Origin: an uncultured Methylomirabilota bacterium
GTDB lineage: Bacteria; Methylomirabilota; Methylomirabilia; Methylomirabilales; 2-02-FULL-66-22
Direction of reading: 5' to 3'
Length of the DNA: 64,000 bases
Assembly: GCA_963705305.1 (NCBI GenBank)
Contig: OY970067.1
Coordinates: 2,624,001 to 2,688,000 of the forward strand
In this document: positions 13,157-37,664 of the stretch, one piece after another
Layout of the letters: the number at the start of each line of letters is the position of its first letter
Position numbering within the stretch: the first letter of the stretch is position 1
Translations under genes and position numbers: made by a program
Notes under the pieces: model-generated
The model's database searches: none
What the model was told of the DNA's origin: nothing
Seen by the model: only the letters and a program-made list of their open reading frames with translations

Positions 13157-13578
13157 GGGGCCCGCCGGGCGAGTTCCTGGCGGATGCTCTGCAGGTGTTG
13201 CAGGAGTCCGGACGTATTCACCTTCAGCCGCTCGGCGATCTCCCCCCAATTCAGCCGTCCCGTGGCCCACAGTCCCAGCACGGCGTCCGGCGACGCATGC
13301 CCCGCCTCGGCCAGGGCCAGGACGACCGCAACCTCGCCGTAGTCCAGTTTCTGATCGTGCAGGTCCGAGATCACCCGTGGTTTCACCCGGAAGATGCGAG
13401 CCAGCTGCGCCTCGGCAGCCGCCTCTCCCAGGCGAGTGGCTGCCTCTTCCACGCGCAGCGCAGCGTTCCCGATGCGCTCCTCGGTGTCCGCGGGTTGAGC
13501 CGCCAGAATGCACGCGTCCGGCAGCCAGACCAGAAACCAGAGCGCCAAGCATACGCTCCACGCCTGTCGTCTCCGCAT
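13153..13578 (-). CDS. Exported hypothetical helical protein
   Basis: RBS-like GAAGA before ATG; signal peptide MRRRQAWSVCLALWFLVW; YGEVAVVLALA and WGEIAERLKV helices. Confidence 0.6.
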   Translation of the reverse strand: MRRRQAWSVCLALWFLVWLPDACILAAQPADTEERIGNAALRVEEAATRLGEAAAEAQLARIFRVKPRVISDLHDQKLDYGEVAVVLALAEAGHASPDAVLGLWATGRLNWGEIAERLKVNTSGLLQHLQSIRQELARRAP

Positions 13579-13686: not shown

Positions 13687-14460
13687 TCAACGCAGGAAGG
13701 CGAGGTACCAGACGATGAGCGTTTCCCCCCAGAAGAGGGCCACCACGGCCCCCAGGGCCAGGAACGGTCCAAAGGGCATGTGCTGGCGACGGCCCACCCG
13801 CCGCAGGACGATGAGGCCGACGCCCACGCCCGCGCCCGACAGACAGCCGATCAGGATCGTGAGGATCACCGCCCGCCAGCCCAGGAAGGCGCCCACCATG
13901 GCGACGAGATTGAGGTCGCCCTCTCCCATGGCGTCCTGGCCGTAGACAACCCCTCCGTAGTAGAGCACCAGGTACAGGAACCCGGCGCCGGCCAGCATGC
14001 CGATCACCCGATCGAGGATGGGCGGACCGCCCAGGAACAGGCCGGCCAGCAGCCCCAAGGGGATGCCCGGAAGCGTGATAGCGTTGGGGATGATCTGGTG
14101 GTCGAGATCGATGAAGGTCGCGGCCACCAGCGCGGACAGGAAGACGAGGAGGACGCCCCCCACCGGCGAGACCCCGAAGCGGGCGACCGTCAGGGCGAAC
14201 AGGATACCGGTCAGGCCTTCGACGAGCGGGTAGCGCCATGAGATGGGTGCCCGGCAGGCGCGGCACCGGCCGCGGAGGATGAGGAAGCTGAGGAGGGGGA
14301 TGTTGTCCCACGGGCGGATGGGCGCCCCGCAGGCCGGGCAGTGTGAGCCGGGGAACACCAGGCTTTCCTCCCGGGGCAGACGATGGATGCACACATTCAG
14401 GAAGCTTCCCACCACCAGACCGAAGAGAAAGGCGACGACGACTTCGGGAGATCCAGGCAT
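13687..14460 (-). CDS. pilD: Prepilin peptidase (A24)
   Basis: GSFLNVCIHRLP, CPAC..WDNIP..CRAC, FIDLDHQIIP, MGEGD, PFGPFL. Confidence 0.96.
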   Translation of the reverse strand: MPGSPEVVVAFLFGLVVGSFLNVCIHRLPREESLVFPGSHCPACGAPIRPWDNIPLLSFLILRGRCRACRAPISWRYPLVEGLTGILFALTVARFGVSPVGGVLLVFLSALVAATFIDLDHQIIPNAITLPGIPLGLLAGLFLGGPPILDRVIGMLAGAGFLYLVLYYGGVVYGQDAMGEGDLNLVAMVGAFLGWRAVILTILIGCLSGAGVGVGLIVLRRVGRRQHMPFGPFLALGAVVALFWGETLIVWYLAFLR

Positions 14461-14497
14461 GGGAACTGCCCTCGGGTGGTTACAGTCCGATTGGCGT

Positions 14498-15895
14498 CTA
14501 CGGCCCGGAGCCTCCGGGCCGCGGCGGAGCGCCGGTCGCCCCGGCCGTGTTCCCCGGCGCCGGACGGCTCGAAGGACGCCCGGCGGCGCTGCAGGGGCCG
14601 GGGCACTCCTTCCGCGCCTGAAAGATCATCTCGCACAGTCCGACGTAACGGAGGTCCTGGACGCTGTACCCCGCGGCCATGAGCCGCTGCATGAGACCGG
14701 CGCGCGTGTAGTGGGTGATATGCTCGTGAGCATAGGCGCCCGGCAGGAGCTTCCCGTAGATCCACTCTAGAACCCCCCAGAGCCGTCGGTCGTAGTCCGG
14801 CGTGCCCAGGATCAAAGTTCCGCCGGGGCGGAGCACGCGGGTCATCTCGTGCATGACCTCGGGGAGGTCGGGAACGTGCTCGATGACTTCGGAGCAGATG
14901 ACCACGTCGCACGCGGCATCGCGGACCGGCAAGGCGAAGATGCTTCCGTTGACCAGACGGGAATGGGACCTGCGCAGGAAACGGAGCTTGGGCAGCAGGA
15001 TGTCCAGCCCGACGGCGGCGGGCAGTCCCTGGATGATCCGGCTGGAGCCACAGCCGATATCCAGGACCGTCCCGCGACCGTCCGGCGAGGCCGCCCGCAG
15101 GAACGCGAGGATGGTGCGGTGCCGGGCCCGCTGCCAGTAGCGCTGGAGCGGGATGGGGCTGTCGAAGGCGCGGTGGTCGTAGTCGGCCGACTCGACCGAG
15201 TTGCGGAGCCGCCACATGCGGACCAAGGTCCTGAGGTAGGCCCAGCCGAACTGGAGGAGCTTGGCGTGGGAACGGCCGGAGCTCCGGGCCATGTAGTGAA
15301 AGGGAACCTCCCGGATATGCCATCCCCGGCCGTGCACGCGGATCAGAATCTCCTCCAGGACATCGAAGTCGCGCGCCGCCAACCTCAGGTTCGTGAGGGC
15401 ATCCCGCCGGTACATGCGGAAGCCGCTGGAGAGGTCACGGATGTCCATGGACAGGGCGCGACGGTAAACGCGGTTCAGGATGTGGCTCAGCAGGCGGCGA
15501 AGCAGCCCCATGTCGGCCCGGCCGCCCGGGGCATACCGAGAGGCGATCAGGATCTCGGCCGCCTCGCGCTGTCTCCAGAACTCTTCGAGGAAGATCGGAC
15601 GGTGGGACAGGTCGGCGTCCATGGTTGCCACATAGGGGGCCTGCGTGGCGGCGAAGCCGGCGGCCAGGGCGCCCGCATACCCGGGCGCCTGCTGATGAAC
15701 CACGCGGGCCCCGCGCTTGGCGGCGGCGTCCGCGGAGCCGTCGGTGGATCCGCCGTCCACCACCAGGATCTCCCAGCGGGTCCCCAGCCCGTCCAGCGTG
15801 TCGCGCAGCGCCGGCAGGAGGAGCTCCAGGTTCTCCCGCTCGTTCAATGCGGGGATCACCACGGCGAGATCCGGCGGGTCAGACAAGGACCTCAT
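14498..15895 (-). CDS. DPM1-like GT2 polyprenol-phosphate sugar synthase fused to a class I SAM methyltransferase
   Basis: VVIPALNE, VDGGSTDGS, MDADLSH, SRYAPGG, SGFRMYRR; C-terminal VLDIGCGS and CSEVIEHV. Confidence 0.85.
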   Translation of the reverse strand: MRSLSDPPDLAVVIPALNERENLELLLPALRDTLDGLGTRWEILVVDGGSTDGSADAAAKRGARVVHQQAPGYAGALAAGFAATQAPYVATMDADLSHRPIFLEEFWRQREAAEILIASRYAPGGRADMGLLRRLLSHILNRVYRRALSMDIRDLSSGFRMYRRDALTNLRLAARDFDVLEEILIRVHGRGWHIREVPFHYMARSSGRSHAKLLQFGWAYLRTLVRMWRLRNSVESADYDHRAFDSPIPLQRYWQRARHRTILAFLRAASPDGRGTVLDIGCGSSRIIQGLPAAVGLDILLPKLRFLRRSHSRLVNGSIFALPVRDAACDVVICSEVIEHVPDLPEVMHEMTRVLRPGGTLILGTPDYDRRLWGVLEWIYGKLLPGAYAHEHITHYTRAGLMQRLMAAGYSVQDLRYVGLCEMIFQARKECPGPCSAAGRPSSRPAPGNTAGATGAPPRPGGSGP

Positions 15896-17598
15896 GGCGT
15901 CGACCGCCCCTCCCCCGGGCTGCCCTCGGAGGCCGCGGACGTTCGAGCGCGCCTCAGCCGAGCCGCCAGGCGAGCGGATTGCGGGACGCGCTGCGCCCCC
16001 GCCTCGTAGATGCGCAGGGCCGCCGTCGGGTCGTGCAGCGCCTCGTAAGCCGCCCCCAGATTCAGGTAGGCATCCTCGTAGGTCGGATTCAGCCGGATGG
16101 CCTGCTCCAGCCAGGGGAGCGCGTCCGCCGGGCGGCCGGTGCGGATCAGGAGGACGCCCAAGTTGTTCCGTGGGAGGGCGGAAGTGGGCGCGGCGCTAAG
16201 CTCGGCCTCGAACTCCTCGCGGGCGGCCGGCAGGTCCCCCCAATCCAGCAGCAGTTCACCCAGATTGTTGTGGACGAGGGCCCGAACCTTGACCGGCAGA
16301 TCCGGCTGCCTCCCCATGGCGCGATAGAAGTCCAGCGGGTCGGCCCAGGGCTGAAGCCGCAGCAGGGTCAGGCCGATGTATCCGGCGATCAGAATAGCGA
16401 GGCCGACAGCGCCCCAGTTGGAGATCCACAGGGGGGTCCGGGCCTCGAGGGCGTGGGCAAGAAGGGCCCCCAGGAGGATGCACCAGCCCACCGACGGCGC
16501 GTACAGGAACCGCTCGGCGGTAAAGAAGCCAAACTGCGGGGCCGGGGCATACAGGACCAGGGCGAGCGAAGGCACGAGCAGGATCGGGAGCCAGGCCACC
16601 CAGGGAAAGAGAGAGCGGGATCGGCGCCAGGCGGCCAGCAGCCCGACCACCAGTCCTCCAAGTGCAGCCGCGCCGCCGAGGGCGGTGGGGGGCACGGGCA
16701 CTACCCGAAGGGCGCGGAAGAAATGGAGCGCGGGGAGCGGAAACAGAAGGACCCGGGCATATTCTCCCAGGATGGCCAGGAGCCCCACCAGACGGAGGCG
16801 GGCCGGCCGGAAGCCGAGCGCGAAGCCTGCCGGGGCATGCGCCAAGCCCGTGCGGAGCCCCCAGTACAGACCCCCCGCCGCGAGCAGGGGGGCCAGCCGG
16901 GCCAGCGCGCCCAGCCACCGGCGGTGCGGCGGACATTCTTTCGGGTCTGAGATTTCCCACGTGATCCAGGCTGCGGGAAGCACCGCCACCGACTCTTTGC
17001 AGAGGAGCGCTGCCAGGAGTGCCACCCCCGCCAGGCTCCCCCAGGCCCAGGCGGCAGGTCGGGTCGCCTCCCGCATCCCGAGAAGTGCCAGCAGGGCCGC
17101 CAGCGCGAACGTTGTGGAGACCAGATCCACCCGACCCTGGATCCACGCCACCGCCTCCGTATGGGCGGGCAGCACGGCGAACAACACGGCGGCGATCCAG
17201 GCGGTCATCGGCCGACGCATCGTCCGCAGCGCGACGACGTACACCAGGAGGCTCGCCAGGACATGCCAGAGCAGGTTGCTGAGATGGTAGCCTGCCGGGT
17301 TCGTTCCCCAGAGCGTCCAGTCGAGGCGGTAGAGCAGGGTGATGAGGGGGCGGTAGTAGGGCAAGATGACATCGGTCACGTGGACCTGACTCCGGAAGAC
17401 GCCGGACAGGCTGGATGGCCCCGTCACCAGCGGGTCCGCCAGGATCACCAGCGGGTCGTCGAAGACAAAATCGAAGCGGACCGTTCCGACGGAGGCCACC
17501 ATGGCGATGAGGATCACCAGGATCAGCCGGCGGACGCCGGCGTGTCGATCGGTCCCGGAGAGCCAGGCGGACAACCACGGGCCGGGCGGCTGGCTCAT
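15892..17598 (-). CDS. TMTC-like multi-TM GT-C glycosyltransferase with C-terminal TPRs
   Basis: FVFDD (acidic pair after TM1), YYRPL, GYHLSNLLWH, HTEAVAWIQGRVDL, LLCKES, AERFLYAPS, then NNLG-type TPR repeats. Confidence 0.78.
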   Translation of the reverse strand: MSQPPGPWLSAWLSGTDRHAGVRRLILVILIAMVASVGTVRFDFVFDDPLVILADPLVTGPSSLSGVFRSQVHVTDVILPYYRPLITLLYRLDWTLWGTNPAGYHLSNLLWHVLASLLVYVVALRTMRRPMTAWIAAVLFAVLPAHTEAVAWIQGRVDLVSTTFALAALLALLGMREATRPAAWAWGSLAGVALLAALLCKESVAVLPAAWITWEISDPKECPPHRRWLGALARLAPLLAAGGLYWGLRTGLAHAPAGFALGFRPARLRLVGLLAILGEYARVLLFPLPALHFFRALRVVPVPPTALGGAAALGGLVVGLLAAWRRSRSLFPWVAWLPILLVPSLALVLYAPAPQFGFFTAERFLYAPSVGWCILLGALLAHALEARTPLWISNWGAVGLAILIAGYIGLTLLRLQPWADPLDFYRAMGRQPDLPVKVRALVHNNLGELLLDWGDLPAAREEFEAELSAAPTSALPRNNLGVLLIRTGRPADALPWLEQAIRLNPTYEDAYLNLGAAYEALHDPTAALRIYEAGAQRVPQSARLAARLRRARTSAASEGSPGEGRSTP

Positions 17599-18284
17599 TT
17601 TGCCGCCTCCGGGGTGGTGCGTCCCCGCATCTCGGCCAGGACCTTCTCGATCTCCCGTTTCGCAATCTGGCGGACCACCTCATTGGAGGCGTGCTCGTAC
17701 ATGTTCTGCCAGAGCTCGAGCGCGGTCTCCAGGGCGCCGGTTTTGGTGTACAGGCGCGCGATGAAGCGGGACAGGTAGGGCGGCCGTCCGGGCAGGCGAT
17801 TGGCCACCAGCCACCAGCGCAGGGCCTCCGGGTAATCCTTCAATTCCAGGTAGGAGAGGCGCCCGAGGTCGTGCGGCAGCTCCCAGCGATCGGGATTGGC
17901 CGCGATCCCTTTCTGGTAGATGGCGATGGCCTGCGGAACTTGATGGGCGATGTCCAGGAAGAGGCCACCCAGCCGGTAGGCCTCCACGAAGTGGGGATCC
18001 AGGCTGGTGGCCAGGTCCACCAAGGGATACAGCTGGGGAAGGGGCTCGTGGGATTCGATCCGCCCCCCGAAGTACTGCACGGTACGCAGCCAGTAGAGAT
18101 CCGCGGCCAGCGGGTGAAAGCCGAGGAGGAGCGGGCGCAGGACCGCCGCGCGGGGAAGGATCAGGAAGTTCTCTTTGGCGGACTGGATGGTCGGCGCCCG
18201 GGCCTCCAGGGTCCGGTTCAACGGGACCGTGGCGGCCAGAGTGCCCACGACCAGGCCGAGTCCCAGCAGTGCACCGCGCCTCAT
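17595..18284 (-). CDS. Membrane-anchored TPR-like protein (pilus-locus accessory)
   Basis: N-terminal hydrophobic segment; LAADLYWLRTVQY, LDPHFVEAY, KGIAANPDRWEL; 4-bp overlaps with both neighbours. Confidence 0.7.
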   Translation of the reverse strand: MRRGALLGLGLVVGTLAATVPLNRTLEARAPTIQSAKENFLILPRAAVLRPLLLGFHPLAADLYWLRTVQYFGGRIESHEPLPQLYPLVDLATSLDPHFVEAYRLGGLFLDIAHQVPQAIAIYQKGIAANPDRWELPHDLGRLSYLELKDYPEALRWWLVANRLPGRPPYLSRFIARLYTKTGALETALELWQNMYEHASNEVVRQIAKREIEKVLAEMRGRTTPEAAK

Positions 18285-19048
18285 TTGAGGTCCCGCTGTC
18301 CGAAGATGATGATGGCTGTCACCAGGAGTACGGCGATGTAGGCGGTCCCGTAGAGCAGGGCCAGGGGGAGATACCCCGGCCCCAGCGGGAGGTGATAGAT
18401 GCTGGCCTCCGTGATGTTGAAGCGACTGAGGTTGGGGAGAAGCGTGTAGAGGCCGGCGGCCAGGGCGCGAACGGCGGGGCTGCCCAGCTGCTGTGCAAAC
18501 GCCTTGAGGTCCGCGCTCAATCGCCCGATGACAAACAGGGACAGGGTGAAGATAGCGCTCAGCGTCGGCGTGGTAAATGTGGAGAAGAGGATGGCCGCCG
18601 CCGTCAACAGGAGCAGCTCGACATAGGCGAGCAGGACGGCCGGCATCAGCTCGAAGCTCCAGCGGCCCTCCAGGACGCGGGTGAGACACAGGAGGCCCGC
18701 GGCCATCACCGCCACGTTGACCAGCAGCGTCAATCCGAGGCCGCAGAATTTCCCCAGAATGAACTCGGCCCGCCGCACCGGGCGGGTCATCACCGGATAG
18801 ATGGTCCGCCGGTCGATCTCCCGCGAGACCAGTCCCACCCCGATGAACACGGCGATGAGAAGCCCGACGACAGAGATGGCGGCTATCCCCAGATCCTTGA
18901 CGATCTTCTCCTCGCCCCCGACGGACAAGCTCACCAGAATGGTCGAGCTGCCGATCATAGCCAGGGCGAACACCAGGAGGGCGTACAGCACCCGATCACG
19001 GACCGCCTCGGTGAAGGCCATGAGGGCGACGGCAGCGATCCGCTTCAT
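18281..19048 (-). CDS. ABC-2 type permease (PilI-like)
   Basis: EAVRDRVLY, EIDRRTIY..TRPVRRAEFILGKF; multi-TM. Confidence 0.85.
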   Translation of the reverse strand: MKRIAAVALMAFTEAVRDRVLYALLVFALAMIGSSTILVSLSVGGEEKIVKDLGIAAISVVGLLIAVFIGVGLVSREIDRRTIYPVMTRPVRRAEFILGKFCGLGLTLLVNVAVMAAGLLCLTRVLEGRWSFELMPAVLLAYVELLLLTAAAILFSTFTTPTLSAIFTLSLFVIGRLSADLKAFAQQLGSPAVRALAAGLYTLLPNLSRFNITEASIYHLPLGPGYLPLALLYGTAYIAVLLVTAIIIFGQRDLK

Positions 19049-19986
19049 GCCTGTCCCCCGGCGCGCACCTCGGCCAGGAAGAGCGTCTCGAGGCTCCGCT
19101 TCTGGGGCGTCACGGCTGTGATGCGTCCCCCCAGCTCCATGACCGTTCTGAGAAAGGGATCGACCTCCGCCTGCCCGCCCAGCCGGAACAGCGCCCGGTC
19201 CCCCTGGACCAGTGGGGGTCCCCCGGCCAGTCCCTCCAGCCGCCGCAAGGCTCCGGGCGGAAGCCCGGCGGTCGTGACGTCCACGGACTCGACCTCGCTC
19301 CCCAGCAGCTCGTCCAGCCGACCCACCCGGACCAGGCGGCCGCCCAGCAGGATGCCCACCCGGTCGCAGATGATCTCCACGTCGGGAATGATGTGGGTGC
19401 TGAAGAACACCGTGCGGCCCTCGTCCCGGAGGCGCAGGATGATATCCCGCACTTCCTTGCGGCCGATGGGATCCAGGCCGGACATGGGCTCGTCCAGGAT
19501 GACGAGCCGCGGATCGCCCAGCAGGGCCTGCGCCAGGCCGATCCGCTGCAGCATCCCCTTGGAGTACTTGCGAAGCTGCAGGCGTCCCGCCTTCACCAGT
19601 CCCACCAGGGCGAGCAGGGCGGCGATCTGTTCCCGGGCCCTCTGCCGGGCCAGGCCGGCCAGCTGGGCCATGTACGCGAGGAACTCCTCTCCCGTGAGAT
19701 ACTCGTAGAAATTCGGGCTCTCGGGGAGGAAGCCGATCTGGGATCGGAGGCGAGCCGTTTCCACGTCCTGGTCCAGCAACCAGGCCTGACCGGATGTGGG
19801 GCGGACCAGGCCAGTCAGGATCTTGATCGTGGTGGTCTTTCCGGCGCCGTTGGGACCGAGGTATCCGAATATCTCCCCGGCCTCCACGGAGAGATCCAGG
19901 CTATGAAGGACACGCGTCTTACGTCCCCAGAATCCGCTCCGGTAATCCTTCGAGACGCCTGCGATTCGGATGGCTGGCATTTCCAC
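19045..19986 (-). CDS. ABC transporter ATP-binding protein (PilH-like)
   Basis: GPNGAGKTT, YSKGMLQRIGLAQAL, LDEPMSGLDP. Confidence 0.92.
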   Translation of the reverse strand: MEMPAIRIAGVSKDYRSGFWGRKTRVLHSLDLSVEAGEIFGYLGPNGAGKTTTIKILTGLVRPTSGQAWLLDQDVETARLRSQIGFLPESPNFYEYLTGEEFLAYMAQLAGLARQRAREQIAALLALVGLVKAGRLQLRKYSKGMLQRIGLAQALLGDPRLVILDEPMSGLDPIGRKEVRDIILRLRDEGRTVFFSTHIIPDVEIICDRVGILLGGRLVRVGRLDELLGSEVESVDVTTAGLPPGALRRLEGLAGGPPLVQGDRALFRLGGQAEVDPFLRTVMELGGRITAVTPQKRSLETLFLAEVRAGGQA

Positions 19987-20071
19987 CTGCTCAGGCCGGA
20001 TGTGCGTGCGGGCAGCCCCGGCCGCCGCGCGCCGCGTCCGGCTGGATCGAGGGGCCGTGGACGCGCGGCTG

Positions 20072-20101
20072 ATTGTAGGAGGTGGGATTCACGAGTGTCA
20101 A
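20072..20101 (-). promoter_or_regulatory. sigma70-type promoter for the ABC/glycosylation/pilD operon
   Basis: Minus-strand TTGACA-N18-TACAAT about 85 nt upstream of the ATPase start. Confidence 0.65.
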
Positions 20102-20327: not shown

Positions 20328-20783
20328 TCACTCTCCCGTCCATAATCCATAGACGGACGAGTAGCCCACGGAGCCACCGGATCCAGAGTTGCCGGGCGGG
20401 CTGACCGGTGCATTGTAGGTCCCCGCCAAGCTTGCCCCCTTGCTGTAGACATAGATGTCGTCATTGATGGCGGGAACCGACCCGCTGGTGAGCACCGGGC
20501 ACAGCTGGTACGGAACGCCCCACGGGTCGTTGTCGGGGACGTTGACATAGTAGGCGTTGCGCAACGCGTCGATGCTGGGGGGATATTGATTATTGTCGTT
20601 GGCGTAGGTGACGGACATCGTAACCGCCAGCTTGGTGTCGGATGCCGCGCGCGAGTATCTGGCGCGCCGCATGGCCCCTTGAAGACTGGGGATCGCGATG
20701 GCAGCGAGAATGCCAATGATTGCCACGGTGATGAGCAGCTCGATCAGCGTAAAGCCGTGTTCTCTTGCTGCCCGGCGATCCAT
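20328..20783 (-). CDS. Second type IV pilin (paralogue)
   Basis: Class III leader MDRRAAREHG|FTLIELL; RBS GAGGTG; DPWGVPY motif. Confidence 0.9.
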   Translation of the reverse strand: MDRRAAREHGFTLIELLITVAIIGILAAIAIPSLQGAMRRARYSRAASDTKLAVTMSVTYANDNNQYPPSIDALRNAYYVNVPDNDPWGVPYQLCPVLTSGSVPAINDDIYVYSKGASLAGTYNAPVSPPGNSGSGGSVGYSSVYGLWTGE

Positions 20784-20869: not shown

Positions 20870-20907
20870 GTCCACGGGCAGGTGGCGCGTGCCACCTGCC
20901 CGTGGAC
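20870..20907. terminator. 17-bp perfect hairpin between the two pilin genes
   Basis: GTCCACGGGCAGGTGGC-GCGT-GCCACCTGCCCGTGGAC. Confidence 0.65.
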
Positions 20908-20927: not shown

Positions 20928-21413
20928 TCAGTTCCCCGACCAGGACCCGTACATGGCGGAGTACCCGACGCTGCCGCCCTGGCCCGTAACGGGGAAGGCG
21001 GCGCTCCCCACGACGCCGGTGGTGTTGGCCAGCGCATCGGCCGCCGGACAGGTTGACGGGCCCGCCCCCAAGCTGCAGGTCCACACGTCGTCGGTCGACG
21101 CCGGAACCTTATTGCCCCCGGTGTCAAAGATGACGTATGCGTTGTTCCACGGGTCGTTGTCCGGGACGTTGGCGTAGCCGGAGTTCCGCAGGACCGCCAG
21201 GCTGGCGGGGTACAGGTTTGCGTCGTTGGCGTACACGATCATCTGCGTGGTGGCGGTCTTCGTGTCGGCCGCCGCCCGGGAGTACTTCGCCCGCCGCTGG
21301 GCGCTCATCAGGTTCGGGATGGCGATGGCGGCCAAAATACCAATGATGGCCACGACGATCAGCAGCTCGATCAGGGTGAAACCTTTGGCTTTCCTCCGCA
21401 TCAACTTAAGCAT
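20928..21413 (-). CDS. pilA: Major type IVa pilin
   Basis: MLKLMRRKAKG|FTLIELLIVVAIIGILAAIAIPN; RBS GGAGG; sigma54 promoter upstream; downstream of pilSR. Confidence 0.88.
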   Translation of the reverse strand: MLKLMRRKAKGFTLIELLIVVAIIGILAAIAIPNLMSAQRRAKYSRAAADTKTATTQMIVYANDANLYPASLAVLRNSGYANVPDNDPWNNAYVIFDTGGNKVPASTDDVWTCSLGAGPSTCPAADALANTTGVVGSAAFPVTGQGGSVGYSAMYGSWSGN

Positions 21414-21518: not shown

Positions 21519-21534
21519 TGCAGGGAGTGTGCCA
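21519..21534 (-). promoter_or_regulatory. sigma54 (-24/-12) promoter of pilA
   Basis: Minus-strand TGGCACACTCCCTGCA; AT-rich tract and TGAC/TGTC words further upstream are consistent with IHF and PilR sites. Confidence 0.8.
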
Positions 21535-21689: not shown

Positions 21690-23916
21690 TTACGGCCGGC
21701 AAGGTCCTGGCAGGATGATGGGCAATTGCTCCAAGATCCAGCCGTCCCCCCCCAAGCGGAGCAGTGTCCGGGCGCAGCGATCCTGCAGGCCCTCATGGGG
21801 AATGTCCCTCTCCATCTGATACTCGAGAGCCACCCGTCGCTCCCCGCCGGTGAGGGACGCTATCCAGCTTACGCGAGCCGCAAGGGTGCCGGAAGACGTG
21901 TCCCTCCCACCGCCAGTTCCGTGGAGGAGTGGAGAAAGGCCGGGAGCGAGAAACCGGGCCGCGCCGGGCCAGCCGCCTTCTCCCAGGGCGTGCCAGAAAC
22001 CCTGAACTGCCTCTTCCGGCGACCGCTGGCCGGGGGGGCCCTGCGTCGCGCAGATGCCGCGAGCGTCTGGCTCGGCTAATTTTTCCGCCAGGGTCGAGGT
22101 GGTCTGCTCCCGCGACCCATCGCCGCTCTCCGCGTAGAGTGCCGCTGCGATCCGGCTCATCCGGGCCAGAAGATATCGGTCGCCTGGTGCCAAGCAGCGG
22201 GCCTCATCCGCCATGACGCGCCGGGGGGTAAAAATCGTCAGGGCGCGCTCGTAGCGCCACCGGGCCTCGGAAGATCTTGCCTCCTTCGCCAAGGCCTCCA
22301 CCAGCCCGGCATGAAACCGGAGCTGCGACGACGACGCCAGCTCAACCGCGTCCCCGAAGTGTTTCTGCGCCAGCAGCCAGCGGCCGGACGCGGCAGCAAT
22401 CTCGCCCGCCAGAAACTGGCTGTTGGGGTCCGTCGGTGCGAGGTAAGTCATCTGGTCGGCGATGCGGATCGCGTCTTGGGGGTCGCCGGCTTGCATGGCC
22501 GCCCGCGCCCCCGCCTCGTGAGCGGCAAAACTCAGGGGATTCAGACGAAGCGCCCAGCGGAGATCCCATCTGGCTGCCGAGAGCTCTCCAGTGGTGAGCG
22601 CGAACCGACCCGCCTCGGTGAGGACGCTGGCGTAGTAGCGGGTGCCGGCCACGAGGGCCGCCGCCGCCAGGATGACGATCAGGGCCAGCCGCCAGATGCG
22701 CGAGAAGCGGCGGTGGGAGCGTCCATCCGTCAGGTGAGCGGTGCTGATGCCGACCAGGACAGCGGCGGCGAAAGCGATGGCGGGGAAGCTCCAGTCCTGA
22801 TCCAGGGCGGAGTGGCAGGCGAAGGCGGTCAGGGCGGCCAGGAGCGGACCGAGGTACCGTCGTGCCGGAGCGTTCGTGGGGCTCTTCCTGATGGCGAAGC
22901 CGATCCGGCCGAAGAGCCACGCCAGCATGACCAGGAGGAACAGTGCGGCCGGCAGGCCGAACTCGGCCGCCACTTCGAGGTAAAGGTTGTGGGGGTCTTT
23001 CCCTCCCACGTACGGAATGCGCTCGTAGCGGTTCAGCGCCACGGGGAAGGCGCCCGGACCCACGCCGAGCCAGGGATGATCCCGCACCATGTCCCACGTC
23101 CACCCCAAGATATGCCACCGCCAGACGAAGGAGGTGTCCCAGGCGATGCCCCCGGGATTCCAGAGCCCGGCCATGAACTGCAGCAGCAACCGGCCCCGGA
23201 CGACCAGGACGACCGCGAGGGCCCCGCCTGCCATGCCGAGCCACAGGCGGCGGCGATGCCACCAGGAGGCCCGGTCGACGAGCGCCCAGGCTCCCAGACC
23301 GACCGCGCAGGCCAGCAGAGCTCCCCGCGACCGCGTGAGCGGGAGTCCTATGGCGGCAAGGCCTCCGGCCGCCCAGGCCGCATACCGAACGGGGGGGGTG
23401 CGAACCTCTCGCGCCAGCACGAGGGCCGCGCCCCCTGCCAGGAGGAGAAACCCGGCCATGGCATTCGGGTAGCCGAAGGGACCTGTCAAGAGCGAGGCGT
23501 ACATCCCCCACCCGCTTCCCCGGGCGAGACCGATGATGCCAGCCGCGGCCGTCACAGCCCCCGAGGCTGCCAGGGCGGCCAGAATCACGCGCCCACCTCC
23601 CGGCGTCTCGCGGGTCCCGAGGGCGGCCAAAGTGCCGGCGAGGAGATAGGCCAGGAGCAAGAGCAGACCCTGGACGGTTCGATCCGGGTATGTGGTGGAG
23701 GCCGCCGACGCGAGGGCGAGGGTCCCGGCGAGCAGCAGGGCGGGTGAGGGGCGGAGCCGAACGTTCCGCCCCGGCGGAAAGAGTCCGAGGAATCCGGCCA
23801 GCACCAGGAACAGGAGCAGGCTGACGTGTCCGACCGCGCTCTGCCCGCCGCCGACCCAGGGAAGGGCGATCAGCAGGCCGGCCAGCAGGCAGACCATCAG
23901 CGGGAGGGAGGCGTCT

Positions 23917-23930
<14 letters not shown>
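21690..23930 (-). CDS. O-antigen ligase (Wzy_C) family protein with TPR-like tail; putative pilin O-oligosaccharyltransferase
   Basis: GPFGYPNAMAGFL, LTRSRGALLA, HPWLGVGPGAF, PHNLYLEVAAEFG; overlaps the pilR 3' end. Confidence 0.8.
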
Positions 23931-25314
<1,384 letters not shown>

Positions 25315-25375
25315 GTCGCGTTCCCCCGTGCCGGTGCCCGCCGGCGGCCGCGCCGCCCGCCGGCTGCACCGGGCG

Positions 25376-27169
25376 TCAGCGCCGCGGAAGGCCGGTCTCC
25401 AGAGCCGAAGGCGCTCCGGCCGGCGCGCGCTGCAACCGTACGTAGAAGGTTGTTCCGCCCCCCGGATGGCTCTCCACCCGGATCTGCCCGCCCATGCTCT
25501 CCAGGATCTTCTTGGCGATGGCCAGGCCCAGGCCGGTCCCGGAGGGGCGGGTGGTGAAGAAGGGGTCGAAGATCTGCCCCAGATTCTGGCTGGGGATCCC
25601 TCGTCCGGTATCGCGAAACGCCAGCTCCACCCATTCTCCTCTGGCCGGACCGACGGCCGCCGCCGGGTCACCGCCTCCCACGCCGGGGAGGGCGGGCTGG
25701 AGCGGCGGGGATGCGGAAGCCGCCGCCGGTCTCAGGAGGATCGTAAGGCTGCCCCCGCCGGGCATGGACTGGATCGCGTTCAGGCAGAGATTCCAGACCA
25801 CCTGGCGCAATTGATCCCCGTCGGCCAGCACGGCCAGATTGGGCGACTCCTCGATCACTCCCAGAATGGTGTCGGGGTGCCGCTCGTGGCTGCGCTCCAG
25901 GAGGCGGAGCGTCTCGTCCAGCAGCGGGCGGACCGGTACGGGGCGGAAGAGCAGCGGCTGCGGCTTGGCGAAATCGAGGAACTGGCCGGTGATGAGCTTC
26001 AGGCGGCCCGCCTCGTTCAGCAGGATATCCAGAAGCTCCCGATTCGCCCCGAGGATAGCGAGATCCTCGCGCAGGACCTCCACCGCGCCGCTGATGGCCG
26101 CCAGCGGGTTCCGCACCTCGTGGGCGATGTTGGCGGCGAGCTGCCCCAAGGCCGCCAGGCGGTCGGAGCGGCGCAACTGCTCTTCGACCCGCTTTCGCTC
26201 TGTCAGATCCTGGAAGATGGCCGCCAGACCCAAGGTCTGGCCGTCCGCGGCCCGCAGGGGAGAGCAGGCGATGCCCAGGGGGATCGTTCGGCCGTCTTGC
26301 CGCTGGAAGGGGATCTCCGTCGTGGGCTCCTCGAGCCGTCCGTCCGGATCGGCGAAGAACTGGGGCAGGGAGGAACAGGGGGCAAACGGCGTCTCCCGCC
26401 AGTGATGGTCCTGCAGGGCCGCCAGGGTGTACCCCGTGATCCGTTCAGCCGCCTGGTTGAACGAGACCACCCGCCCGTCCAGATCCAGCGTCAAGAGCCC
26501 GCTGGAGATGTTGGCCAAGATGACCTGATGGAGCGTTTGCAGGCTCCGGAGGTCCAGGCCGCGCTGCTCCAGTTCTTGGCCGGCCTGGCGCAGCCGATAG
26601 GCGAGGTGGCTGCTCAGGATGGCTACCGCCAGGAAGGCCACGGTGTGGATCAACACCTGGTAGACCGCGTAGCCGACGGAGCGGGAGGGGGGACCCGCGG
26701 CGAACGCGACCGGGCGGATAGCCTGGGTCCACTCGCCTATGACCAGCATCCCGTACAGGCTGCTGCTGAGGAGGGCCACGATCAGGGACCCGCGGCGCTC
26801 CAGCAGGTTGGATGCCCCCAGGATCACGAAGATGTACATGAAGGCCAGAACCGAGTCGATCCCTCCGGTGTAATGCACCAGCAGGCTGACCAGGCCCAGA
26901 TCCAATCCGATCTGTACCCGGCCCTGGAAGGCCAGGTAGCGCTCGCTGCGCAGCGCCACCGCATAGATCAGGGACAGGGCGAAGGTGAGGCCGAGCAGGC
27001 CGTACAGGGGAGTGATGTCGAAGGGAAGCCGCTGGTGGAGATCCGGGATGCCGGCGGAGCCCAGCAGGATCGACGCCAGGAGAAGCCGGCCCCCGACCAG
27101 CCATTTAAGCTTGTGCATCAGGCTGGGTACGCTGCTGGTGGTGTGCAGTCCATCTGGCGTCTGCGGCAC
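25376..27169 (-). CDS. pilS: Sensor histidine kinase PilS
   Basis: Multi-TM N-terminus with TGGIDS, PAS domain, AHEVRNPL H-box, DTGRGI, FFTT, GTGLGL; start 27169 (GTG) or 27118. Confidence 0.87.
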   Translation of the reverse strand: MPQTPDGLHTTSSVPSLMHKLKWLVGGRLLLASILLGSAGIPDLHQRLPFDITPLYGLLGLTFALSLIYAVALRSERYLAFQGRVQIGLDLGLVSLLVHYTGGIDSVLAFMYIFVILGASNLLERRGSLIVALLSSSLYGMLVIGEWTQAIRPVAFAAGPPSRSVGYAVYQVLIHTVAFLAVAILSSHLAYRLRQAGQELEQRGLDLRSLQTLHQVILANISSGLLTLDLDGRVVSFNQAAERITGYTLAALQDHHWRETPFAPCSSLPQFFADPDGRLEEPTTEIPFQRQDGRTIPLGIACSPLRAADGQTLGLAAIFQDLTERKRVEEQLRRSDRLAALGQLAANIAHEVRNPLAAISGAVEVLREDLAILGANRELLDILLNEAGRLKLITGQFLDFAKPQPLLFRPVPVRPLLDETLRLLERSHERHPDTILGVIEESPNLAVLADGDQLRQVVWNLCLNAIQSMPGGGSLTILLRPAAASASPPLQPALPGVGGGDPAAAVGPARGEWVELAFRDTGRGIPSQNLGQIFDPFFTTRPSGTGLGLAIAKKILESMGGQIRVESHPGGGTTFYVRLQRAPAGAPSALETGLPRR

Positions 27170-27236
27170 CGTTCTCTCCAGATAAAGAGGCCGGAGGACG
27201 CGCAGGCGGCCTCCGGCACGTGGCGCCCGAGAACGG

Positions 27237-28442
27237 CTACTTGCCGACGACCGTGACCAGCTTGAAGATCGGCAGGTACATGGCGATGACCACCCCACCG
27301 ATGACCACGCCGAGGAAGACCATGAGCATGGGCTCCAAAAGCGAGGTCAGGTTGGCCACCGCCTGGTCCACTTCCTCGTCGTAGAAGTCCGCGATCTTCC
27401 CCAGCATGGCATCCAGGGCGCCGGTCTGCTCTCCAACCGCGATCATCTGAACGACCATGGGGGGGAACACCCCGGACGCCTTGAGAGGCTCGGCAATGGT
27501 CTTCCCCTCGGAGATGGAGGACCGGGTCTTCTGGACGGCCATTTCCACGATCTTGTTCCCGGCGGTCCGGGCGGTGATATCCAGACCGTCCAGGATCGCC
27601 ACGCCGCTGCTGATGAGCGTTCCCAGGGTCCGGGTAAACTTGGCCACCGCCACCTTGCGGATGAGGATGCCGAAGACCGGCGTGCGCAGCATGAAAGCGT
27701 CGATGGCCGTCCGCCCGACATTGGTCGAGTACCAGTACCGGAGGGAGACCACCGTCAGGATGATCGCCCCGGCTCCGTAATACCAGTACTGTATCACGAT
27801 CCGCGAGGTTTCCAGGACGACCATGGTCGGCAGCGGCAGGGCTGCCCCGAAGCCCGCGAACATGGACTTGAAGGTCGGGATCACGAAGATCAGCAGGAAA
27901 GTCACCACCAGCAACGCCACCGAGATGATGGTCGAGGGGTAGATCATGGCCGACTTCACTTTTTTCTTCAGCGCCATGGCCTTTTCCATATACTGGGCCA
28001 GGCGGTTCAGGATGGTGTCCAGGATGCCGCCGGCCTCCCCGGCCTCGACCATGTTCGCGTAGAGCGAGGAGAAGACTTTGGGATGCTGCTTCAGGGCCGC
28101 GGCGAAGGTGGAGCCGCCCTCGACGGACTGACGGATCTCAATCAGGACTTTCTTGAACAGCTTGTTCTCCTGCTGCGACGCCAGGATCTCCAGGCATTGC
28201 ACCAGGGGCAGACCAGCGTCGATCATGGTGGCGAACTGGCGGGTAAAGACAACGATGTCCTTTTCCGTGACGGATCCGCCCAGGCCGAGCAGACTGACCG
28301 CCTTGGGCTTCGCCCGCACCGCGGTGGCGATCACCTGCTGCGAGCGCAGCCGTGCCACCACCGCCTCCCGCGTTGCCGCCTCCATCTCGCCCGCGATGGT
28401 CTGGCCGCCCCGCGTTCGGCCACTATAGACAAAAATCGGCAT
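27237..28442 (-). CDS. pilC: Type IV pilus platform protein PilC
   Basis: FTRQFATMIDAGLPL, AGEAGGIL, SAMIYP, VGEQTGALD, AMYLPIF. Confidence 0.96.
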   Translation of the reverse strand: MPIFVYSGRTRGGQTIAGEMEAATREAVVARLRSQQVIATAVRAKPKAVSLLGLGGSVTEKDIVVFTRQFATMIDAGLPLVQCLEILASQQENKLFKKVLIEIRQSVEGGSTFAAALKQHPKVFSSLYANMVEAGEAGGILDTILNRLAQYMEKAMALKKKVKSAMIYPSTIISVALLVVTFLLIFVIPTFKSMFAGFGAALPLPTMVVLETSRIVIQYWYYGAGAIILTVVSLRYWYSTNVGRTAIDAFMLRTPVFGILIRKVAVAKFTRTLGTLISSGVAILDGLDITARTAGNKIVEMAVQKTRSSISEGKTIAEPLKASGVFPPMVVQMIAVGEQTGALDAMLGKIADFYDEEVDQAVANLTSLLEPMLMVFLGVVIGGVVIAMYLPIFKLVTVVGK

Positions 28443-28457
28443 TGGCCTCTCCTGCCG

Positions 28458-29563
28458 CTAGCGGCGTGGCGGCATGCCCGCGCCCGCATGGCCGGCCGCC
28501 GGGGCCCGCTGCAGCATCTGCTGGAGTTCATCCGGCTGGGTCGAGGCCCCCAGCGCCTGCTCCAGCGTGATGTTCCGCCGCAGGTAATGCTGGAGCAGGG
28601 ACTCATTCATGCTCTGCATGCCGGATTTTTCCTTGCCGGACTGCATCATGCCGTAGATCTGGTGCAGCTTGTCCTCGCGGATCAGGTTACGGATGGCCAT
28701 GTTGGGAACGAGGACCTCGAGGACCAGGACGCGCCCTTGGCCGCCGGCCCGCGTCAGCAACATCTGGCACAGGACCCCCTCCAGCACGAAGGACAGCTGG
28801 GCCCGGATCTGCGGCTGCTGGTGGGGGGGAAGACGTCGATGATCCGGTTGATGGTCTGGACGGCGGAGTTGGTGTGCAGGGTCCCGAAGGTGAGGTGTCC
28901 GGTCTCGGCCGTGGTGAGGGCGGCCTCGATGGTCTCCAGGTCCCGCATCTCGCCGATCAGCACCTTGTCGGGGTCCTGCCGGAGGACGGATTTCAGGGCC
29001 GCCTTGAAGGAATGGGTGTCGGCGTACAGCTCGCGCTGGTTCACCACGCACTTCTTGTGCTGGTGGACGAACTCGATGGGGTCCTCGATGGTGACGATGT
29101 GCTCCGCCTTCTCCCGGTTGATCTTGTCGATCATGGTGGCCAGGGTCGTGGACTTCCCCGACCCGGTGGGTCCCGTCACCAGGATCAGGCCTTTCGGGCG
29201 GTTGCACATATCGGCTACCACCTGGGGCAGCCCCAGCTCCTCGAAGGTGAGAATCTTGTAGGGGATGGTCCGGATGGCCGCGGCCACGGCGCCGCGCTGC
29301 ATGAACACGTTGGCCCGGAAGCGGCTCAGACCCTTCACGCCGAAGGAAAGATCCAGCTCCTTCTGCTCCTCGAACTTGTGCTTCTGGGCCTCGGTGAGGA
29401 CGCTGTACGCCATGCTCTTGGTCTCGGCCGGGGTGAGTGGCTGCGTCCCCACGGGGGTCATGTGGCCGTGCAGGCGGATCACGGGGGGGATGCCCGTCGT
29501 GATATGGAGGTCCGAGGCCCCCTTTTCGGTCATCTCCTTCAGCAGATCATGCAGGCTGGGCAT
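28458..29563 (-). pseudogene. pilT: Retraction ATPase PilT, frameshifted in a poly-C tract
   Basis: ASDLH, GPTGSGKSTT, TIEDPIEF, LRQDPD, AETGHL in 28754..29563; C-terminus (HQQPQIRAQLS, AIRNLIRE) in another frame; junction at G7 tract 28823-28829. Confidence 0.88.
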
Positions 29564-29605
29564 GGTGGTCGGCGCTCGCTTTCATAGGAATTGACGGGGC
29601 CTGGG

Positions 29606-31309
29606 CTAGCCGCCCGTGGTCACCCGCAGCACCTCTTCCACGGTGGTCATCCCTTCCCGGAGTTTTTCGAGCCCGGCCTCGCGGAGGGTCTTCATGCCGT
29701 TCTTCCGGCCCAGCTCCCGGAGTTCCAACGCCGAGGCCCCCTGCAGGATGGCCTCCTTGATGTTCTCCTTGATGAGCAGAACCTCGTAGAGAGCCACCCG
29801 TCCCTTGTAGCCCGTCTCGCTGCAGACCATGCAGCCTTTGCCCTTTACGGTTTGAATGGACTTTGCGTCCTCGGGGCTGAACCCGACGCTCATCAGGGCC
29901 TGATGCGGAACCGGGGCGACCTCCTTACACGCCTGGCAGACGCGGCGGGCCAGCCGCTGGGCCAGAATCACGTTGGTGGAGGCGGCGACCAGGAACGGCT
30001 CCACCCCCATGTTCAGGAGCCGGCTGATGGTGCTGGGCGCGTCGTTGGTGTGGAGGGTGGACAACACCAGGTGCCCGGTCAGGGCCGCCTTGACGGCGAT
30101 CTCGGCCGTCTCGTAGTCGCGGACCTCGCCCACCATGATGATGTCGGGGTCCTGGCGCAGGAAGGATCGCAGGGCTGCTGCGAACGTCAGGCCGATCTCG
30201 GCCTTGGTCTGCACCTGGTTGATCCCCGACAGGTTGAACTCCACCGGGTCCTCGGCGGTCATAATGTTGGTCTCGGTGGTGTTGAGACGGTTGAGGGCGG
30301 AATAGAGGGTGGTCGTCTTGCCCGACCCCGTCGGTCCCGTCACCAGCACCATTCCGTACGGCATCAACAGCCCGCTTTCGAAATCCGTGAGGGCCAGCGG
30401 GTCAAACCCCAGCTTGGTCATGTCCAGCTGGAGATTCCCCTTGTCCAGCAACCGCATGACCACCTTCTCGCCGAAGAGCGTGGGAAGGGTGGAGACGCGG
30501 TAGTCCATCTCCCTGCCCCCCATCTTGATTTTGATGCGACCGTCCTGGGGCAGGCGCCGCTCGGCGATGTCGAGTTGGGACATGATCTTGACGCGGGAGG
30601 TGATTGCCGCCTTCAGCCGGGTCGGGGGCTGCATCACGTCGTACAGCACGCCGTCGATCCGGTAGCGCACCCGGAAGGACTTCTCGTAGGGCTCGATGTG
30701 GATGTCCGACGCCCCCTTCTTGATGGCGTCGGTCAGGATCAGGTTCACGAGCTTGACGACCGGGGCGTCCTCGGCGGCCTTCCCCAGCTCGGCCACGTTG
30801 ACCGAGTCGTCGCCCTCCCGGAGGGCCTCGACCTCCTTGTCGTCGAAGGTCTTCATGATGTCCTCGACCATGCCGGCCGAGTCGAAGTATTTGTTGATGG
30901 CGTTCTTGATGGAGGTCTCCGCCGCGACCACCGGTTCGACCTTGAAGCCGGTCATGAACTTGATGTCGTCGATGGCGAAGATGTTGCTGGGGTCCGCCAT
31001 GGCAACGGTGAGGACGTTCCCCGTTCGGTTGATGGGGATGACCTGGTGCTTCTGGGCAAGCTCGGGGGCGATCAGCTTGATGACGCCGGCCTCGATCTCG
31101 AAGTGAGAGAGATTGATGGAAGGGACGCCGTACTGCCGGCTGAGGAAGGAGGTGATGTCGTCTTCGCTGATGAAGCCGAGTTTCACCAGGTTGGCGCCGA
31201 TCCGGCCGCCGGAGGTCTGCTGCTGCTGGAGGGCTTGCTGGAGCTGCTCTCGTGTGATGAGCCCTGCCTTGACCAGCATGTCACCAAGGCGCGCGGTGCC
31301 TGTCGCCAT
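29606..31309 (-). CDS. pilB: Type IV pilus assembly ATPase PilB
   Basis: MshEN-like RLGDMLV..GLIT; ASDIHIEP, GPTGSGKTT, LRQDPD, tetracysteine motif. Confidence 0.96.
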   Translation of the reverse strand: MATGTARLGDMLVKAGLITREQLQQALQQQQTSGGRIGANLVKLGFISEDDITSFLSRQYGVPSINLSHFEIEAGVIKLIAPELAQKHQVIPINRTGNVLTVAMADPSNIFAIDDIKFMTGFKVEPVVAAETSIKNAINKYFDSAGMVEDIMKTFDDKEVEALREGDDSVNVAELGKAAEDAPVVKLVNLILTDAIKKGASDIHIEPYEKSFRVRYRIDGVLYDVMQPPTRLKAAITSRVKIMSQLDIAERRLPQDGRIKIKMGGREMDYRVSTLPTLFGEKVVMRLLDKGNLQLDMTKLGFDPLALTDFESGLLMPYGMVLVTGPTGSGKTTTLYSALNRLNTTETNIMTAEDPVEFNLSGINQVQTKAEIGLTFAAALRSFLRQDPDIIMVGEVRDYETAEIAVKAALTGHLVLSTLHTNDAPSTISRLLNMGVEPFLVAASTNVILAQRLARRVCQACKEVAPVPHQALMSVGFSPEDAKSIQTVKGKGCMVCSETGYKGRVALYEVLLIKENIKEAILQGASALELRELGRKNGMKTLREAGLEKLREGMTTVEEVLRVTTGG

Positions 31310-36933: not shown

Positions 36934-37025
36934 AGATTCCTCCTCGCCGGACGGCAGCCTTGGACGGCCTGGCCGGGGCGAGCGGATTTCGGCTCGCCCA
37001 TTCCGGCCACGCCTCCGTGGGGAGA

Positions 37026-37041
37026 AGCATCTGCCGTGCCT
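37026..37041 (-). promoter_or_regulatory. sigma54 promoter of amtB
   Basis: Minus-strand AGGCACGGCAGATGCT (GG-N10-GC). Confidence 0.7.
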
Positions 37042-37150
37042 GAATCCTGGCGGATCGAAAAATCGAAGTCCGGTGGCGCCAAGCCGTGGTTTTTTCAGGA
37101 TCACGCAGGAGAAGAGGGGGGAGCGGGGTCCTGCCGGCTGGCGCGAGGCG

Positions 37151-37198
37151 TGCCTTCTGCGGGGGCACCCCGGCTGGCGCGTGCCTAATCCGTGAGCG
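37151..37198. promoter_or_regulatory. Tandem NtrC-like enhancer sites
   Basis: TGCCTTCTGCGGGGGCA (37151) and TGCCTAATCCGTGAGCG (37182), TGC-N11-GC(A/G), 31 bp apart, 110-155 bp upstream of the sigma54 site. Confidence 0.55.
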
Positions 37199-37371
37199 GA
37201 ATATCGCAGGATTGATCGATTCTACCGGTGGCTCGACGGCCACGCGGGGTTCCCGTCGGTGGGTCCGCCGGTGAGAGCGCCCGATGCCCGGCGCCGCCGC
37301 CGGGGGGTGGGGAATTGCCCATCGGCCATTCGAGGCGGCGAATTCACGACCCCTGATGTGGACGATCCGGA

Positions 37372-37664
37372 CTAGAGGGGAGATCCCGCCGCCAGGACCG
37401 CGGGCGAGGGACCAGCATCCAGGTTTTGCCGAAGGGTGCGCCCGGGCGCCTTGCGCTCGGGGGACATGCGCCGCTCGACCCACTGGCTGAAGAGGGACAT
37501 GCCGTACGTGCAGATCCAGTACACCACCGCAATGAAGCTGTACATCTCGAAGGGGCGGATGTCACGCCGGGTGACGATCTGGGCGACCTTGGTGAGGTCC
37601 ACCATCCCGATGATGGAGGCGAGCGACGTGTCCATGAACAGCACGATGAACTGGGTCACCAGGG
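37372..37664 (-). pseudogene. Orphan 3' fragment of the amino acid ABC permease gene
   Basis: LVTQFIVLFMDTSLASIIGMVDLTK...MSPER matches the C-terminus of 39875..40609; no 5' part. Confidence 0.85.
37508..37664. repeat. 157-bp direct repeat, copy A
   Basis: Aligns ungapped to 39984..40140 with 5 mismatches by manual comparison. Confidence 0.92.

Follow-up and report, generated by a model that had tools for sequence, protein, structure and literature searches.

What is the function of the genes that lie between the pilins and pilD in a type IV pilus locus of an uncultured Methylomirabilota bacterium? The stretch analysed, hereafter the window, comprises 64,000 nucleotides (nt) of contig OY970067.1 (positions 2,624,001 to 2,688,000), and the host genome is a single contig of 5.65 Mb. 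Two pilin genes are followed there by genes for an ATP-binding cassette (ABC) ATPase, a permease, a tetratricopeptide repeat (TPR) protein, a TMTC-like transferase of the glycosyltransferase C (GT-C) type and a family 2 glycosyltransferase (GT2) fused to a methyltransferase, and then by pilD. The original prediction took these five genes for one complete pathway of pilin glycosylation. We found that the transferase and the GT2-methyltransferase are an optional two-gene insert in an ABC-permease-TPR-pilD operon, which probably serves O-glycosylation of pilin from a lipid-phosphate-monosaccharide. The genes concerned are as follows.

20928..21413, minus strand: type IV pilin 1, 161-amino-acid precursor, probable major pilin and candidate acceptor
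20328..20783, minus strand: type IV pilin 2, 151-amino-acid precursor with an N_methyl match, candidate acceptor
19045..19986, minus strand: ABC ATPase, PilH-like (ABC_tran, E 1e-27), with a GTG start, ATG at 19980 also possible
18281..19048, minus strand: ABC-2 type permease, PilI-like, 255 amino acids (ABC2_membrane_2, E 1e-15)
17595..18284, minus strand: single-anchor TPR protein, 229 amino acids, ABC-pair partner that resembles PilG only in its position
15892..17598, minus strand: TMTC-like GT-C transferase, 568 amino acids (PMT_2, E 2e-6; TPR), gene 1 of the optional module
14498..15895, minus strand: dolichol-phosphate-mannose synthase (DPMS)-like GT2 fused to a class I S-adenosylmethionine (SAM) methyltransferase, 465 amino acids (Pfam), gene 2 of the optional module
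13687..14460, minus strand: prepilin peptidase PilD (A24_N_bact, Peptidase_A24)

The five open reading frames all lie on the minus strand as predicted, and each of the four 4-bp stop/start overlaps (19045-19048, 18281-18284, 17595-17598 and 15892-15895) reads ATGA. The start of the TPR gene was corrected to 18284, and pilD does follow closely, with 37 nt between the GT2-methyltransferase stop and its start. The Pfam scan agreed with the domain identities proposed earlier, giving ABC_tran, ABC2_membrane_2, a weak TPR match, PMT_2 with TPR, GT2 with Methyltransf_11 and an A24 peptidase in turn.

The transferase and donor genes are an optional insert

The TPR protein served as marker for a survey of relatives and was found in 49 of 200 genomes of the phylum. 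Clustering its 117 loci at 90% identity gave 59 groups, of which 22 were left out because the contig ended before pilD; the 37 that were kept are of Methylomirabilota type. Between the TPR gene and pilD, 17 of these loci have both glycosylation genes, 16 have neither, three have the transferase only and one the GT2 fusion only. One of the 16 loci with neither carries a transferase upstream of the ABC genes. Among the 12 genomes of family f4, nine have the TPR marker, one the transferase and none the GT2 fusion; the corresponding counts in the 127 genomes of family f9 are 15, 104 and 19. A further 60 loci with the TPR protein, mostly from Acidobacteriota, all contain the permease (60/60), while 43 have pilus genes and three the transferase.

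The transferase also occurs by pilins without the ABC genes. Three relatives (G143, G155 and G156) show the order pilin-transferase-pilD; this arrangement, a pilin, one or two transferases and pilD with no ABC or GT2 gene, was seen in three of the eight f9 loci fetched. At two Blastocatellia-titled loci (L128 and L131) transferases lie between the pilins and the permease, with no ABC or GT2 gene separating pilin and transferase. The position of the ABC ATPase by the permease and the pilin is fixed in relatives. Because 16 of 37 loci reach pilD with neither glycosylation gene and the transferase can adjoin pilin without ABC genes, the ABC/permease/TPR trio is best read as a separate, PilGHI-like pilus-assembly module. 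The idea of five genes in one complete pathway does not survive these distributions, nor the lack of a flippase gene in the cassette. The ABC transporter was likewise rejected as the donor flippase on the distribution of the trio relative to the glycosylation genes.

Fold and motifs of the transferase

A structural model of the transferase built on 145 sequences reached pLDDT 94.5 and pTM 0.93, whereas the single-sequence prediction gave only pLDDT 52.5 and was unusable. The protein has about 11 membrane helices up to residue ~418, followed by C-terminal TPRs; the model shows 11 long helices before residue 418, and a crude hydrophobicity scan gave 10 segments. The membrane part matched AglB (Z 23.8, root-mean-square deviation (rmsd) 4.3, 335 residues aligned), ArnT (Z 22.1, rmsd 4.3, 342 aligned) and Pmt1-Pmt2 (Z 20.1, rmsd 4.9, 356 aligned), as well as STT3 (Z 20.6), ALG12 (Z 20.1) and Pmt4 (Z 19.1). 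Foldseek returned ArnT and Pmt4 amid TPR matches. The GT-C fold expected for 15892..17598 was thereby established, with AglB, ArnT and Pmt proteins at Z 19-24.

All motifs of the TMTC-like layout that had been proposed were found; they read DD, YRP, KE and ERxxY in this protein, which also has the TPRs. The motif residues are D47-D48, Y82-R83-P84, R156-x-D158, K201-E202 and E362-R363-x-x-Y366. The acidic pair lies in the loop after the first transmembrane helix (TM1) and is almost invariant in the alignment (D47 in 144 of 145 rows, D48 in 145 of 145), as are R83 (144) and E202 (143). The window transferase gave no match to DUF1736 (PF08409), and 12 of 34 relatives matched it at E <= 0.1, the best at E 6e-9. 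A DUF1736 search of genomes returned no match, controls included, and says nothing either way. A chordate DUF1736 cluster resembled the transferase at 0.92 by features, and a profile search of PDB sequences gave MID51 matches only, at chance level. By its motifs the enzyme keeps an intact active site and is TMTC-like rather than a TMTC in the strict sense.

With 70,261 clusters at E <= 1e-30, the transferase family is huge, and it occurs in 149 of the 200 phylum genomes, often at several loci each; a plasmid search with one family member as query found no match. The host genome (G000) has a second TMTC-like gene at C1:3763364-3765094; it lies in an island of low GC (about 41-55%), and neither a pilin nor a GT2 is close by. 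This copy looks horizontally acquired.

The GT2-methyltransferase gene

The GT2-methyltransferase is, by its domain matches, a probable lipid-phosphate-sugar donor synthase. Its GT2 domain is of the GT-A type with a DxD motif and is nearest to DPMS, ArnC and GtrB. The best PDB match was the archaeal DPMS (Dol-P-Man synthase) 5mlz (E 8e-23), in keeping with the DPM1-like assignment made earlier, followed by the ArnC/GtrB type (E 3e-15). The domain fused to it is a class I methyltransferase of generic type. The DGGS, MDAD, DIGCG and SEVIEH motifs are kept in 13 orthologues, and no hydrophobic segment, hence no membrane helix, was found in the protein.

The fusion was found in 33 of the 200 phylum genomes. 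In relative L032 a GT2-GtrA-methyltransferase fusion occupies the same slot, which fits a route from synthase through flippase to transferase; the host genome has a GtrA gene elsewhere (C1:2183686). Close homologues were fetched from 18 non-pilus loci, mostly polysaccharide clusters. Neighbours were scanned in 12 of these, and ten had a match to a GT-C family (PMT_2, GT87 or YfhO), one a DUF6311 gene and one a flippase-family gene only. The GT2-methyltransferase is a portable donor module for GT-C enzymes and not pilin-specific. Among the polysaccharide clusters, a GT2-GT87 fusion is directly coupled to the GT2-methyltransferase at L254:7913-10039.

Linkage of the transferase to pili

On a 71-row tree, a biased sample in which one row was called pilus-linked by distance only, the window transferase sits in 99-supported sets of 9 and 11 rows, all pilus-linked, and the pilus-linkage label changes 6 times, against 22 in shuffles. 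Linkage to pilin loci is conserved in relatives, in line with the original prediction. A complex prediction for the transferase with pilin 1 scored 0.00; it gave no answer and counts neither way. A third pilin of the same type stands alone by a transposase-like gene in the host genome (C1:1468839-1469237).

A Wzy_C gene upstream of the pilins

The original prediction did not mention a gene that lies immediately upstream of the two pilins.

21690..23942, minus strand: Wzy_C (O-antigen ligase/O-oligosaccharyltransferase-like) protein with TPRs, 750 amino acids (Wzy_C, E 4e-22)

Its product is a second candidate pilin glycosyltransferase, either a rival or a partner of the GT-C enzyme. Of 21 loci spanning pilin to pilD, 13 have the gene, some of them lacking the GT-C pair, and most of the other eight stop at the pilin. 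TfpO/PilO and PglL resemble it in having a Wzy_C domain and a gene by pilin genes, whereas the window protein has TPRs and its gene is upstream of the pilins. The window pilins end in Asn and Glu, whereas TfpO, in the accessible part of its description, uses a C-terminal Ser. The Wzy_C region had no PDB match, and the Pfam scan gave no match to the PglL-specific domain.

A variable slot between the pilins and pilD

In relatives the slot holds one to five TMTC-like paralogues per locus. It also takes a 553-amino-acid PMT_2/TPR GT-C protein, a protein of ~1,080 amino acids with membrane, spermidine-synthase-fold and TPR parts, and, just after pilD, YfhO-type genes. The pilin-to-pilD slot looks like a surface-variation cassette.

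The ~1,080-amino-acid multi-pass protein was seen at L035:7866-11150, L038:2067-5348, L040:7456-10683, L045:6414-9707, L051:7353-10586, L066:14719-17655 and L067:687-3902; it is at times the sole insert of the slot and is absent from the pilus locus of the host. It carries GLGSG and EPSNP motifs. Aminopropyltransferases carry GGGDG and DSTDP at these motifs, and judging by the replacement the protein may be a methyltransferase.

Five Acidobacteriota loci that were scanned have a methyltransferase-GT2 fusion in the slot, three of them with a YfhO-type GT-C; these contents are an independent arrival at similar chemistry. At L103, L129, L142, L143 and L150 (Acidobacteriota), YfhO-type GT-Cs, the methyltransferase-GT2 fusion in reverse domain order and lone methyltransferases lie between the TPR gene and pilD, and L103 and L111 have a YfhO gene between pilS and pilR as well. 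Other inserts by pilins encode a squalene-cyclase-like/TED protein with DUF362 (Blastocatellia-titled) and sulfatase-family proteins (L099:7224-9193, L123:5343-6983 and L124:1919-3436). Away from pili, family f7 (L052, L058, L062, L243 and L244) has TMTC-like genes and a GT2 amid secreted proteins and small membrane genes, which look exosortase-like; a non-pilin glycoprotein system is possible at these loci.

Proposed mechanism and alternatives

We favour O-glycosylation of pilin from a lipid-phosphate-monosaccharide as the probable function of the insert because the transferase has a GT-C fold with catalytic residues, a DPMS-like donor gene accompanies it, the pair travels together, the clade is pilus-linked, adjacency to pilin recurs and TfpW offers a precedent. 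Judging by the DPMS match, the soluble GT2 would act at the cytoplasmic face, taking one sugar from an NDP-sugar and loading it onto polyprenyl phosphate, and the fused SAM domain might, more tentatively, O-methylate the lipid-bound sugar. A GtrA-type flippase encoded elsewhere, not the ABC pair, would carry the donor across the membrane. The GT-C enzyme would then pass the sugar to Ser/Thr of the membrane-anchored pilin, with the TPRs choosing the substrate; the fold and the residues D47/D48, K201/E202 and E362/R363 that would form the site on the periplasmic side were observed. By analogy with TfpW, the modification would likely serve to alter or hide the surface of the pilus, for instance as a defence against pilus phages.

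Several points weigh against this function. Pilin as the acceptor is an inference. The window pilins are as rich in Ser/Thr as had been claimed (18% against 9.6% for the window proteome), but this richness does not discriminate between loci, the content averaging 0.205 in 29 pilins from loci with the transferase and 0.183 in 28 from loci without (p = 0.11), and Ser/Thr content was rejected as evidence. The transferase family is mostly not pilus-linked: in f9, 104 of 127 genomes carry it and three of eight fetched loci have it by a pilin, and the second copy in the host genome is unlinked to pili. The donor can serve glycan acceptors, its homologues lying in polysaccharide clusters by other GT-C types, and the Wzy_C gene is a more constant neighbour of the pilins than the GT-C pair. 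Part of the locus sample was picked through the transferase itself. A naive Fisher test of transferase/GT2 co-occurrence (p = 1e-6) was set aside because related loci are not independent; on the TPR tree there are 3 independent contrasts only (paired test, p = 0.5), and the pairing is no more than suggestive. The full TfpW motif YX6PFX7P is found in none of the 145 family members.

The Wzy_C/TPR protein might instead put an oligosaccharide on pilin, the GT2-methyltransferase/GT-C pair adding a side sugar to that or another surface glycan and multiple paralogues extending or branching it. Three-component GtrA/B/C systems are the model for such tailoring. The presence of the Wzy_C gene by pilins in the 13 of 21 full loci agrees with it, as do the PMT_2, GT87 and YfhO GT-Cs beside donor homologues in 10 of 12 scanned polysaccharide loci, the up to five paralogues per locus, and the fact that ArnT and ALG12, with lipid or glycan acceptors, match the fold as well as Pmt. 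We nevertheless consider it rather unlikely: no Wzy_C gene occurs in the pilin-transferase-pilD stretch of G143 or G155, the GT-Cs scanned in polysaccharide clusters gave no TPR match, and proteins are the acceptors of the TMTC and TfpW enzymes, which carry TPRs, according to the available parts of the reports on them.

A general O-glycosyltransferase of envelope proteins, with minor pilins, adhesins and lipoproteins as acceptors and the slot as a hotspot of surface-modification genes, would explain the spread of the family over 149 of 200 genomes of the phylum, frequently in several places, the f7 arrangement with GT2 and secreted proteins far from pili, the lack of pilus linkage in the close tree neighbours G003 and G012, and the entry of unrelated enzymes into the slot. 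It is distinctly unlikely in view of the pilus linkage of the window transferase clade in 11 of 11 rows, the translational coupling of the gene into the pilD operon and the recurrence of direct pilin adjacency in other lineages. That all five genes form one integrated system, with the ABC transporter and the TPR protein as working parts of glycosylation such as a donor flippase, is highly improbable. The single promoter, the four 4-bp overlaps and the absence of another flippase from the cassette speak for it; against it stand the trio without either glycosylation gene (16 of 37 loci), the f4 genomes (TPR marker 9/12, transferase 1/12, GT2 fusion 0/12), the transferase in only three of 60 mostly Acidobacteriota loci, its position by pilin without the trio in G143, G155 and G156, and the need for PilGHI in pilus biogenesis of M. 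xanthus, as stated in the accessible part of PMC3724824.

Pilin O-glycosylation, our preferred function, could be extended to the slot as a whole. The slot would then be a swappable array of TPR-guided periplasmic pilin-editing enzymes, in which an O-methylated monosaccharide from the fused synthase-methyltransferase is placed or extended on pilin by one to five TMTC-family paralogues, many relatives adding other GT-Cs or the ~1,080-amino-acid protein, which could methylate or aminoalkylate pilin or glycan. We regard this extension as doubtful. If it is true, TMTC catalysis would gain a bacterial model that is tractable, and a combinatorial pilus code would exist in two phyla.

Other features of the locus

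The order of genes on the minus strand is pilB, pilT, pilC, pilS, pilR, the Wzy_C/TPR gene, pilin 1, pilin 2, ABC ATPase, permease, 229-amino-acid TPR protein, 568-amino-acid transferase, GT2-methyltransferase and pilD. This is a type IVa pilus cluster in the style of Myxococcus and Geobacter, from a Methylomirabilota bacterium, and the nearest named homologues of the window proteins come from Methylomirabilota/NC10. The remaining features are listed below.

23917..31309, minus strand: pilR, pilS, pilC, pilT and pilB, core type IVa pilus genes, pilT frameshifted in the assembly
20072..20101, minus strand: sigma70-like promoter of the ABC-permease-TPR-(insert)-pilD operon, 11/12 match
21519..21534, minus strand: sigma54-type (-24/-12) promoter-like site before pilin 1
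20870..20907, no strand assigned: perfect hairpin of 17 bp that follows pilin 1 and resembles an attenuator or terminator

The pilT gene (28458-29563) is broken by a one-base frameshift in a C run near 28790-28830, possibly an assembly error; relatives have an intact gene of ~370 amino acids. A small secreted hypothetical protein without Pfam match is encoded 3' of pilD (window 13153-13548, or with a longer start), and likewise after pilD in L033 and L037. GC falls to about 56% at window positions 37000-40000, over a dicarboxylate-symporter-like region. A search of sequencing runs listed no RNA run, and one DNA run contained 0.25 of the sequence words.

The sigma70-like promoter of the original prediction was recovered at 20101-20072; two such sites were found, against 0.7 +/- 0.8 in shuffles. 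Read by eye, 9 of 12 relatives have a site of the form TTGAC-17/18 nt-TAnAAT/TCTAAT/TTTAAT 5' of the ABC ATPase; a strict pattern recovered it in 2 of 12. Since it recurs there whichever gene is upstream, it was assigned to the ABC-to-pilD operon. The window has no second match to the sigma54-type pattern besides this site, a match also turned up in 16 of 100 shuffles, and a similar site was present in 9 of 12 relatives. Hairpins 3' of major pilins are described in the available part of PMC11841053.

Comparison with known systems

Myxococcus has the gene order pilG-H-I. The window order is ATPase-permease-TPR, and the likeness to PilG/H/I of M. xanthus and the ABC genes of Geobacter Xap is one of arrangement: in each, a pilB-T-C-S-R cluster has an ATPase, a permease and a partner placed between pilA and pilD. 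The accessible text on M. xanthus (PMC3724824) presents PilGHI as an ABC system that pilus biogenesis requires, and that on Geobacter relatives reports inserts between pilH and pilD (PMC6060248). The archaeal Dol-P-Man synthase 5mlz and the ArnC/GtrB enzymes are the best PDB sequence matches of the window GT2 domain; unlike them, the window enzyme has no membrane domain and is fused to a SAM methyltransferase instead.

Eukaryotic TMTC1-4 (CAZy GT105) have 11 transmembrane helices, TPRs and seven motifs, and prokaryotic homologues have already been noted, according to the available part of PMC7801869. The window transferase shares the 11 helices and TPRs, the full M1 DD, M3 RxD and M7 ERxxY motifs, the YRP core of M2 and the KE core of M4. 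It differs in lacking SHKS of M2, implicated in mannose contact, and T of M4 KE(T/Q)xxT; in having F294-R295 at the position of M5 DW, where 46 of 145 relatives have D-Y/W; and in the TM9 prolines, which are five residues apart, unlike PxxP of M6. In the literature, with subscription papers thinly covered, we know of no functional study of a bacterial TMTC-family enzyme besides TfpW, and of no work on Methylomirabilota pilin glycosylation, GT2-methyltransferase fusions or MFS/spermidine-synthase fusions.

The original prediction knew of no characterised bacterial TMTC-like enzyme acting on pilin, yet TfpW of P. aeruginosa group IV (Pa5196, PA7) is such a precedent. The accessible part of its description gives a GT-C protein for which 11 helices are predicted, with DDX, a TPR domain at its C-terminus and a gene right after pilA, and a lipid-linked D-arabinofuranose (D-Araf) donor from a DprE1/DprE2 route with a GtrA-like helper (10.1101/2020.04.19.049825); protection from pilus phages by TfpW glycosylation is likewise reported in the parts available (PMC11841053, 10.1101/150227). 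The window system is alike in its 11-helix GT-C enzyme, the DD in the first periplasmic loop, the C-terminal TPRs and the pilin-linked gene, and it would also share the lipid-linked monosaccharide donor and GtrA-like helper. The YX6P core of the TfpW motif is present in 139 of 145 family members. Three genes stand between the pilins and the window transferase; in G143, G155, G156, L128 and L131 the transferase has the TfpW placement. The two systems differ in donor enzyme, a DPMS-like GT2 fused to a methyltransferase against the DprE1/DprE2 route to D-Araf, and in the one to five paralogues per locus.

If the proposed function is true, TfpW-style pilin glycosylation reaches a very large bacterial family related to the human TMTC O-mannosyltransferases, and a pilin, a peptidase, a donor synthase and a transferase make a small defined set for probing the chemistry of this family. 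As a modification of protein, a methylated sugar delivered by a lipid-phosphate donor would be unusual. The advance is moderate, since the concept is published for TfpW, prokaryotic TMTC homologues are in print and the host is uncultured. By layout, motifs and published description, the pair can be likened to TfpW as a variant of that system; what is new here is the fused methyltransferase and the swappable slot with up to five paralogues.

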